From a virus (Duplodnaviria; Heunggongvirae; Uroviricota; Caudoviricetes): 6,181 bases of DNA. Each line of letters starts with the position of its first letter. The first letter of the stretch is position 1. Under the pieces are notes generated by a model that did not search any database, had not been told where the DNA came from, and worked only from the letters and a program-made list of their open reading frames with translations. The stretch lies in IMG/VR virus record IMGVR_UViG_2671180543_000005. The stretch is one strand, 5' to 3'. Both the position numbers and the translations under genes were made by a program. Shown piece after piece: positions 2,404 to 2,714 of the stretch.

Positions 2404-2478
2404 TGGAGCGGGCAGCGGGAATCGAACCCGCATCATCAGCTTGGAAGGCTGAGGTAATAGCCATTATACGATGCCCGC
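2404..2478 (-). tRNA. tRNA-Gly (anticodon UCC)
   Basis: Reverse complement folds as a 75-nt cloverleaf: acceptor GCGGGCA/UGCCCGC, anticodon stem UCAGC/GCUGA, loop CUUCCAA, T-arm GCGGG-UUCGAUU-CCCGC, CCA encoded. Closely resembles enterobacterial tRNA-Gly(UCC) from memory. Confidence 0.8.
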
Positions 2479-2481
2479 ATA

Positions 2482-2557
2482 TGGTGCCGACTACCGGAAT
2501 CGAACTGGTGACCTACTGATTACAAGTCAGTTGCTCTGCCTGCTGAGCTAAGTCGGC
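2482..2557 (-). tRNA. tRNA-Thr (anticodon UGU)
   Basis: 76-nt cloverleaf on the reverse complement: acceptor GCCGACU/AGUCGGC, D-arm GCUC...GAGC, anticodon stem ACUGA/UCAGU, loop CUUGUAA, T-loop UUCGAUU, CCA encoded. One A-C mismatch in the T-stem lowers confidence. Confidence 0.65.
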
Positions 2558-2559
2558 GC

Positions 2560-2636
2560 TGGCCCACCACCGAGGACTCGAACCTCGCACCGTCAACTTA
2601 GAAGGTTGATGCTCTATCCGGATGAGCTAGTGGTGG
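2560..2636 (-). tRNA. tRNA-Arg (anticodon UCU)
   Basis: 77-nt cloverleaf: acceptor CCACCAC/GUGGUGG, D-arm GCUC...GAGC, anticodon stem UCAAC/GUUGA, loop CUUCUAA, T-arm CGAGG-UUCGAGU-CCUCG, CCA encoded. Reads the rare AGA/AGG codons, like the argN/argO-type tRNAs of lambdoid prophages. Confidence 0.8.
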
Positions 2637-2637
2637 T

Positions 2638-2714
2638 TGGTGGCCCTTGCTGGACTTGAACCAGCGACCTGGCGATTATGAGTCGCTCGCTCTGACCAAC
2701 TGAGCTAAAGGGCC
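2638..2714 (-). tRNA. tRNA with CAU anticodon, ileX/ileZ-like (probably tRNA-Ile2, lysidine-modified; could be annotated tRNA-Met)
   Basis: 77-nt cloverleaf: acceptor GGCCCUU/AAGGGCC, anticodon loop CUCAUAA, T-arm GCUGG-UUCAAGU-CCAGC, CCA encoded. Overall sequence resembles E. coli ileX (tRNA-Ile2) as recalled. Confidence 0.75.

Follow-up and report, generated by a model that had tools for sequence, protein, structure and literature searches.

The stretch of DNA analysed here, IMG/VR virus record IMGVR_UViG_2671180543_000005 (6,181 nt; "the window" below means this whole stretch), is the replication-to-lysis stretch of a lambdoid prophage read from the minus strand, and the prophage belongs to the Shigella / enteroinvasive Escherichia coli (EIEC) group. 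Our subject is the compact array of tRNA genes that it carries in its late leader, between the late antiterminator gene Q and the holin gene S. ARAGORN called four tRNA genes, and no more, all of them on the minus strand, and each was scored with the Rfam tRNA model RF00005, whose gathering score is 29.

2714-2638, minus strand: tRNA with anticodon CAU (ARAGORN label Met), 70.5 bits
2636-2560, minus strand: tRNA-Arg-UCU, 56.4 bits, all stems paired
2557-2482, minus strand: tRNA-Thr-UGU, 69.8 bits
2478-2404, minus strand: tRNA-Gly-UCC, 64.9 bits

All four genes span positions 1-71 of the model, that is its full length, with E values of 1e-10 to 1e-15, which confirms that the array is real and far beyond a chance match. 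The genes are separated by spacers of 1, 2 and 3 nt, and CCA is encoded in every one of them. The original prediction, which had been made by reading the sequence alone, had the coordinates, anticodons, order and packing right, and the ARAGORN run that it had proposed as a check returned the same four tRNAs with the same anticodons; it left the strand unstated, though its gene list follows minus-strand order. It had also feared that a T-stem mismatch and a low score might demote the Thr gene to a pseudo-tRNA. This reading is ruled out by the score of 69.8 bits and by the presence of the same A:C mismatch in the host gene thrU, to which it is native. A permissive Rfam search of positions 2050-3000 found no further tRNA remnants and no known RNAs, and returned only antisense "Plastid-ycf2" echoes of the tRNAs and sub-threshold matches on a hairpin upstream of the array.

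The label Met given to the first gene by ARAGORN reflects its CAU anticodon alone. The gene is identical at 74/77 positions to ileZ of Shiga toxin (Stx) phages, at 71/77 to ileY and at 69/77 to ileX, compared with 54/78 for the elongator tRNA-Met genes metT/metU. Its acceptor strands (GGCCCUU...AAGGGCC) form the pairs C4-G69 and C5-G68, where metT has U4-A69 and A5-U68. Ikeuchi and colleagues reportedly found in 2005 that TilS distinguishes Ile2 from Met tRNAs through the acceptor pairs C4-G69 and C5-G68. Its closeness to ileZ, ileY and ileX, its distance from Met and these two pairs together mark the gene as a predicted tRNA of the Ile2 type (lysidine-dependent and AUA-reading) and a homologue of ileZ, for which lysidine modification and charging with Ile are to be expected. 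The original prediction had called it Ile2-like, and the RefSeq annotation of the identical gene as tRNA-Ile agrees.

That prediction had further held that the array keeps the Arg-UCU member of the classical ileZ-argN-argO trio, and this part did not stand. The Arg-UCU gene shows 64/77 identity to argN(UCG) and 66/77 to a "Lys-UUU" tRNA of sibling arrays, as against 58/79 to host argU and 46/77 to argO, so that an assignment to argO is ruled out. It is built on the phage-specific argN scaffold, with a C1-G72 acceptor stem, A20 and the discriminator base G73, and by sequence comparison it is a tRNA of the argN slot with UCU in place of UCG. The argN-type scaffold (CCGCCAYTAGCTCATC...) occurs at this second slot of the arrays with UCG, UCU, UUU, AAA and UAA arms, and it also occurs with odd loops that ARAGORN leaves unnamed and in clearly decayed versions (window 2560-2636; loci L002, L008, L009, L136, L171, L220 and others). 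Anticodon switching on one phage-specific tRNA body seems to be frequent.

The other two genes resemble the host. The Thr-UGU gene is identical at 74/76 positions to thrU of K-12, the sole differences being U16C and U20C in the D-loop while the anticodon arm is unchanged, and the Gly-UCC gene is identical at 75/75 positions to glyT of K-12. In both, homology to the host starts and stops at the termini of the mature tRNA, and both outer flanks are unrelated. The host operon thrU-tyrU-glyT-thrT, which lies upstream of tufB in E. coli and Salmonella, has its Thr and Gly genes in the same order; it differs in that the phage pair lacks tyrU, thrT and the host spacers and flanks. The Thr-Gly gap is 3 nt in the phage as against 209 nt in the host, 206 bp (tyrU and spacers) being missing, and the 3-nt spacer itself could be made up of 1 nt and 2 nt of host flank, or be due to chance. 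The Thr and Gly genes therefore read as copies of host thrU and glyT with the operon order kept and tyrU left out. Capture from the host had been suggested for the Gly gene, which its full identity to glyT bears out, and the Thr gene is a host copy likewise. The U16C/U20C variant of the Thr gene was found in 24 stretches among the loci fetched, which are mostly IMG/VR viral contigs.

Several elements that bear on the expression of the array lie around it on the same strand.

2863-2851, minus strand: candidate late promoter PR', putative -10 TATTCT at 2863-2858, predicted start near 2852
2827-2803, minus strand: intrinsic-terminator-like hairpin, AAACCCGCC-UCCG-GGCGGGUUU followed by more U, recognised from sequence and fold
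2752-2724, minus strand: predicted sigma-70 promoter of the array, -35 TTGCAG at 2752-2747, 17-nt spacer, -10 TATTAT at 2729-2724
2403-2112, minus strand: untranslated structured leader from the last tRNA to the holin gene

Downstream of the hairpin and ahead of the first tRNA comes the predicted array promoter, whose -10 hexamer ends 9 nt before the mature 5' end. The consensus scan reported it as TTTGCA-18-TATTAT (2753-2724); TTGCAG-17-TATTAT (2752-2724) is an equally valid reading. The start is predicted at about 2717, within a G+C-rich 9-nt discriminator (2723-2715); the segment that follows the -10 hexamer, TCTGCCTCC or CCTGCGCCC, is G+C-rich as in stable-RNA promoters. Among 40 distinct upstream sequences, 37 have TATTAT or TATCAT at the fixed distance of 9 nt from the tRNA and TTG 17 nt further up, and the information content averages 1.92 bits in the -10 hexamer and reaches 1.7-2.0 bits in the TTG, against 1.27 in the spacer and 0.56 at positions -70 to -45. 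Since the stand-alone host genes ileY (TTGCGT-16-TATTGC-8 nt) and ileX (TATAAT-10 nt) share this geometry, the promoter was probably inherited together with the Ile2 gene. In the Stx prophage Sp5, differential RNA sequencing (dRNA-seq) placed a primary start site that drives the tRNAs between the terminator tR' and stx2AB, and this equivalent promoter was seen in a mostly lysogenic culture (PMC7547250). The activity that has been shown is that of the Sp5 homologue; for the present copy, a promoter belonging to the array itself and expression in the lysogen are what we predict as most likely. The original prediction that the tRNAs would be expressed mainly under Q antitermination is thus doubtful, given a conserved sigma-70 promoter downstream of the hairpin and the mapped start site in Sp5, though Q-dependent read-through and replication of the phage genome would add expression after induction.

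As the original prediction had said, the tRNAs (2714-2404) lie downstream of a terminator hairpin. The hairpin at 2827-2803 has a 9-bp stem with 6 G-C pairs, a UCCG loop and a U6 run, and its 51-nt fold has an energy of -18.9 kcal/mol (z = -3.2). A consensus terminator scan of 2050-3000 returned no terminator and missed this hairpin too, presumably because the extension of its stem uses part of the U-run. Positions 3340-2803 of the window align with the Q gene of the Sakai phage and the first hairpin downstream of it, and positions 2759-2479 align with the Sakai tRNA promoter and tRNAs, while the 327 bp of Sp5 between these aligned segments have no counterpart in the window (2803-2913 compared with 1650-2046 of the VT2-Sakai locus L243). 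In Sp5 that 327-bp segment holds the short processed StxS RNA and the tR' terminator mapped by Term-seq (PMC7547250), and a StxS-type small RNA in the leader of the window is accordingly ruled out. The Sp5 transcript from PR' to tR' is 258 nt long with an RNase E site at +173 (PMC7547250), from which we deduced that PR' of Sp5 starts about 21 nt after the Q stop codon. The hairpin of the window is homologous to the U7 hairpin at about +25 to +50 of this transcript and not to the mapped tR'. As the sole terminator-like element between Q and the tRNAs it is therefore the best candidate for tR' in the window, and in some other phages the homologous hairpin directly abuts the -35 hexamer of the tRNA promoter. 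The candidate PR' at 2863-2851, which drew no match in the consensus scan, aligns with TATCAT-GATAAG just after Q in Sp5.

Downstream of the array, the fold of positions 2105-2403 (299 nt) has an energy of -89.1 kcal/mol (z = -4.1), and 0 of 200 shuffled sequences were as stable. Neither the scan nor the fold revealed a canonical terminator in 2403-2112, where we found just long structured hairpins without a U-run. The leader contains two inverted repeats, one of 11 bp immediately behind the Gly gene (GTCTTTCAGTC...GACTGAAAGAC) and one of 12-13 bp (ATGAATGATCGC...GCGATCATTCAT). This structured leader could limit read-through from the tRNA promoter into the lysis genes.

The suggestion that such tRNAs supplement the decoding of rare codons was assessed with the near-identical prophage of E. 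coli CFSAN029787 (L233), from which 29 late genes (8,081 codons) and 25 early genes (4,009 codons) were taken by their annotated coordinates and compared with 40 genes of K-12 (15,040 codons) from a single 50-kb region. The figures are fractions within the amino-acid family, followed by the odds ratio (OR) of late and of early genes relative to the host.

ATA: late 0.118, early 0.147, host 0.049; OR 2.6 and 3.3
AGA: late 0.077, early 0.107, host 0.018; OR 4.5 and 6.4
AGG: late 0.057, early 0.060, host 0.012; OR 5.2 and 5.5
ACA: late 0.188, early 0.335, host 0.105; OR 2.0 and 4.3
GGA: late 0.166, early 0.268, host 0.087; OR 2.1 and 3.9
GGG: late 0.247, early 0.147, host 0.117; OR 2.5 and 1.30 (early not significant, p = 0.18)

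The codons read by the array (ATA, AGA/AGG, ACA and GGA/GGG) are thus 2-6 fold enriched in prophage genes, with odds ratios of 2.0 to 6.4 and p <= 3e-5 in every enriched comparison; ACG has an OR of 2.0 in late and of 0.57 in early genes. The control A-ending codons show no such rise in the late genes: CTA, TTA and GTA are depleted there, and CCA shows no change. In the host, the species that match the four tRNAs are of low copy number, with a single gene each for thrU, glyT and argU and two for Ile2.

Taken together, we consider it fairly probable that the array is a lambdoid late-leader cassette of four functional-looking tRNAs with a promoter of its own, which raises the dosage of scarce host tRNAs for the codons that the phage uses. 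Under this reading the four genes would be transcribed as a single precursor from the stable-RNA-type sigma-70 promoter, both in the lysogen and after induction, when Q-modified read-through from PR' and replication of the phage genome would add transcript. Processing of the compact precursor by RNase P and 3' exonucleases would release the mature tRNAs, which would decode AUA (Ile2, needing lysidine at C34), AGA/AGG, ACA/ACG and GGA/GGG. The outcome would be an extra dosage of four tRNA species that are low-copy in the host, matched to codons 2-6 times commoner in the prophage genes. For this copy we infer expression, aminoacylation, modification and a benefit to fitness. That the cassette is maintained is supported by the identical arrays found in many genomes and by the very restricted variation of its Thr and Gly copies, and a bias towards ACA is paired with a Thr-UGU gene downstream of Q in phage SfI (PMC3636060). 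Codon supplementation, as originally proposed, holds up as the best-supported mechanism.

Several observations weigh against it. The codon CGG is also enriched in the late genes (0.235 compared with 0.067 in the host) without a matching tRNA in the array. For the codons of the array, early genes show a stronger enrichment than late genes, even though the array stands in the late leader. The host reference is a single 50-kb region, and the bias may reflect the general composition of acquired DNA. Lambdoid phages with and without tRNAs showed no difference in codon adaptation (PMC4631060). Sibling arrays decay, with degenerate slot-2 genes and a Gly-to-"Val" variant that has a deletion in its acceptor stem, and therefore selection on individual members can be weak. 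A constitutive promoter, moreover, needs a stop before the holin gene, for which the leader at 2403-2112 offers no canonical terminator. CGG is the most over-used Arg codon of the late genes, and an Arg(CCG) tRNA is present in the sibling arrays L134, L152 and L153.

The neighbouring genes place the array in a lambdoid late region.

6171-5224, minus strand: DnaC-like loader
5227-3836, minus strand: DnaB helicase
3490-3287, minus strand: NinH
3330-2914, minus strand: late antiterminator Q of the Q933/VT2-Sakai type (Pfam PF06530, E 5.8e-54)
2111-1896, minus strand: class II (P21-type) holin S, with which the late genes downstream of the array begin (Pfam PF04971, E 1.4e-35; RefSeq "class II holin family protein")
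1683-1054, minus strand: open reading frame (ORF) of 209 aa between holin and lysozyme (RefSeq "hypothetical protein")
988-455, minus strand: lysozyme
473-54, minus strand: Rz

The order of Q, hairpin, tRNAs and P21-type holin on one strand agrees with the placement of the array between Q and S that had been read from the sequence. The Q protein is about 84% identical in amino acids to its counterpart in Stx phages, VT2-Sakai among them, and is labelled "antiterminator Q family protein" in CFSAN029787 in RefSeq, where the homologue starts at an ATG equivalent to window position 3294 (126 aa). The window is 99.5-99.6% identical to prophages of E. coli CFSAN029787 and Shigella flexneri SFBU1023. 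The same four genes are annotated in RefSeq as tRNA-Ile, tRNA-Arg, tRNA-Thr and tRNA-Gly, and the CFSAN029787 prophage carries a frameshifted ipaH effector gene. The 209-aa ORF at 1054-1683 had no Pfam match; in other relatives its position is taken by a YdfR-family gene or by nothing. Ten N's at 1873-1882 are flanked by a 173-bp duplication of the holin (region 1687-2111), which gives two holin-like ORFs (1687-1896, containing X's, and 1896-2111), and both sides of the N run overlap on the same 173 bp of CFSAN029787. This has the appearance of a scaffold gap placed between two overlapping contig ends rather than of a real gene duplication. The ends of the window (1-56 and 6123-6181) have matches of 100% identity elsewhere in the loci of S. 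flexneri and E. coli ECMA0423 and are therefore probably repeated DNA, resembling insertion sequences (IS), at the boundaries of the prophage fragment.

Among the known systems closest to the array is the ileZ-argN-argO cassette of Stx phages such as 933W and VT2-Sakai/Sp5. Both stand downstream of a Q933-type antiterminator and a leader hairpin, begin with ileZ and have an argN scaffold in slot 2, are tightly packed, and have a promoter 9 nt upstream of the first tRNA. They differ in that slot 2 reads AGA (UCU) in the window and CGN (UCG) in Stx phages, and in that the window carries the thrU and glyT copies in place of argO, is not followed by stx genes and lacks the 327 bp that hold StxS and the mapped tR' in Sp5. 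With an ileZ homologue at 96%, an argN-scaffold homologue at 83% that bears another anticodon, and no argO, the array is on sequence grounds a compositional variant and not the classical trio. The arrays of coliphages vB_EcoS-689R5 and PhiR47_1, the Stx2f phage phi467 and SerU-LTIIb (CAU-Lys(UUU)-Thr-Gly or Thr-Gly) share with the window an identical Gly gene, the TAT spacer, a leader of about 290 nt to a class II holin and a Thr gene that is identical or 1-2 D-loop bases off. They differ in slot 2, which is UUU or absent instead of UCU, and in their Thr gene, which is mostly 76/76 to thrU.

We surveyed 5,426 complete E. coli genomes for these elements. The leader and array were 100% identical in 9 of them and covered to at least 80% in 11. 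The Arg-UCU gene of slot 2 occurred in 16 of the 5,426 genomes at 42 places, with a median of 3 places per genome among these 16, 3-5 in the examples inspected and up to 5 in all; its carriers include an EIEC strain with an ipaH-bearing prophage, S. flexneri and E. coli ECMA0423. Among species representatives, the exact Arg-Thr junction was found in S. flexneri SFBU1023 and E. coli ECMA0423 only, with 3 copies in each. The phage-type Gly module, searched for with the 3' end of the Gly gene and the first 64 nt of the downstream leader, was far more common (523/5,426 genomes). An 81-nt query across the Thr-Gly junction gave a rough excess of about 1,100 places, a search that also joins pieces of host thrU and glyT across tyrU. 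The Thr-Gly pair also occurs in the deposited phages phi467, vB_EcoS-689R5, PhiR47_1 and SerU-LTIIb, and, with the Gly module in 523 genomes, the addition of Thr and Gly is not the unusual feature that it had been taken for. The second copy of the array in CFSAN029787 sits behind a different Q gene and a DNA methyltransferase.

Sorted by composition, the 125 ileZ-like matches among the matches listed, which come mostly from IMG/VR, included the following types.

CAU-Arg(UCG)-Arg(UCU): at least 57
CAU-Arg(UCU), with slot 2 decayed in many: at least 29
CAU-Lys(UUU)-Thr-Gly: at least 16
CAU-Arg(UCU)-Thr-Gly, the type of the window, including the window itself and RefSeq loci L001 and L012: at least 9

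The cassette is thus a known, modular and variable element of which the window holds one of the rarer combinations, and full-text literature searches for ileZ/argN/argO and for lambdoid phages with tRNA-Thr/Gly/Arg returned no paper describing this array. In E. coli RMDEC332 (L003), whose array is otherwise 96% identical, the glyT copy at 3349-3419 carries C35A and A38G, which give it the anticodon UAC and the annotation tRNA-Val, together with a 1-nt deletion in the 3' acceptor strand; this gene is either an anticodon-switched tRNA or a pseudogene. Arrays that consist of Thr and Gly only (L140, L139, L150, L176 and others) have an element of about 55 nt directly before Thr in place of the ileZ and argN genes, bounded by the inverted repeat GGTTCYGAGGGG...CCCCTGAAGAACC and with TATCAT or TATTAT ahead of it. 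This element may be left over from the missing upstream genes or may substitute for them.

An alternative to codon supplementation that we regard as possible, if unlikely, is that the tRNAs replace or out-supply host tRNAs destroyed by anti-phage nucleases. One such nuclease is P2-OLD, the effector of P2-lambda interference, which kills by cutting the anticodon arm off host tRNA-ThrU(UGU), at the paired CNG motifs 28-30 and 40-42 and with a requirement for A37 (PMC12445682). Such cells are rescued by Thr-UGU tRNAs of phages, that of lambdoid phage 21 among them, while over-expressed thrU gives little or no protection, and a tRNA is resistant only when its CNG motif is altered and its stem is shortened as well (PMC12445682). 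P2-OLD is triggered by lambdoid Gam. A lambdoid phage equipped with Thr-UGU, and possibly with Gly-UCC as well, could complete its cycle in cells with P2-type defences. P2-OLD's main target is thus the very tRNA species that the array copies, and the Gly gene of the window, like glyT, bears C28-A29-G30 paired with C40-U41-G42 and A37. Sibling arrays, in addition, carry on a non-host scaffold a Lys-UUU tRNA, a species that is a substrate of PARIS and OLD. The Thr gene of the window itself nevertheless retains the anticodon arm of thrU: C28-U29-G30 and C40-A41-G42 are identical, and A27-U43 and the 5-bp anticodon stem are kept, so that by the published criteria a P2-OLD-resistant tRNA is ruled out here. 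The known resistant Thr(UGU) tRNAs (Thr6, and Thr21 of phage 21; SfI type) also have UGU and lie between Q and the lysis genes of lambdoid phages, but they belong to another lineage (51/77 identity between the window Thr and the SfI/P21-type Thr) and have the altered CNG motif and shortened anticodon stem that the window copy lacks. The Gly gene, being identical to the host gene, could act by dosage only, no anticodon-stem variants occurred among the Gly copies surveyed, and the text of PMC12445682 makes no mention of tRNA-Gly. Against this alternative, too, no nuclease is known to target Ile2 or Arg-UCU specifically.

A further point in favour of protection from nucleases comes from the siblings. 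Among 127 thrU-like copies in the loci fetched, variation was confined almost solely to positions 16, 20 and 42-43, and six sibling arrays on at least three sequence backgrounds (L003, L012, L138, L147, L152 and L182) combine G42U or G42C with U43C. These changes destroy C40-A41-G42 and reduce the anticodon stem to 3 bp, which fits the published two-factor pattern of resistance. One of the six, L012, is the second prophage array of CFSAN029787, the genome of the closest RefSeq relative of the window. A more speculative extension, to which we give somewhat less credence, is that the Thr-Gly half records an arms race in which prophages copy the depleted host tRNAs and then gain the resistance changes G42U/C and U43C. 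The window would then perhaps represent a pre-resistant stage, with U16C/U20C as a possible first step, and the second CFSAN029787 prophage a resistant-looking one, while the hypervariable slot-2 tRNA, with UCG, UCU, UUU, UAA or AAA on a single scaffold, would serve as a replacement tRNA that can be re-targeted.

It is less probable again that the array is a functionless passenger, a relic in a defective, IS-ridden Shigella/EIEC prophage that is either young or kept uniform through gene conversion by thrU/glyT and sibling prophages. Its occurrence at 3-5 places per genome in Shigella/EIEC would favour its homogenisation through recombination, the Gly copies and many of the Thr copies are host-identical, sibling arrays contain decayed members, and the junction of the same array to different Q and lysis modules could mean that it is a mere recombination anchor. 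Against this stand four intact genes with high covariance-model scores, and ileZ and argN lineages that are phage-specific, with no host copy to convert them, and yet keep the full cloverleaf. The promoter hexamers, too, have been kept while the neighbouring sequence diverged, the anticodons match the codon bias of the prophage specifically, and the tRNAs are transcribed in Sp5 (PMC7547250). Least likely of all, and in our view improbable, is a benefit to the lysogen through a constitutive, multi-copy supply of AUA/AGA/ACA/GGA decoders for A+T-rich acquired genes, such as the virulence genes of Shigella/EIEC: a promoter downstream of the late terminator, whose Sp5 equivalent is active in mostly lysogenic culture, and the restriction of the Arg-UCU version to few genomes with 3-5 places each in the examples inspected would suit it, but the case is purely correlative and many non-invasive E. 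coli carry related Thr-Gly arrays.

The array described here adds a further compositional variant to the known lambdoid tRNA cassettes behind Q, and identical copies of it are already annotated in RefSeq. For annotators, it is a case in which ARAGORN-type tools name the first gene tRNA-Met although it is predicted to be of the Ile2 type. A promoter of its own downstream of the late terminator means that the tRNAs, and possibly the genes behind them, need not be silent in the lysogen. Finally, the Thr-UGU gene of the window copies the lethal target of P2-OLD, and its sibling variants form a natural allelic series for the model of defence and counter-defence.

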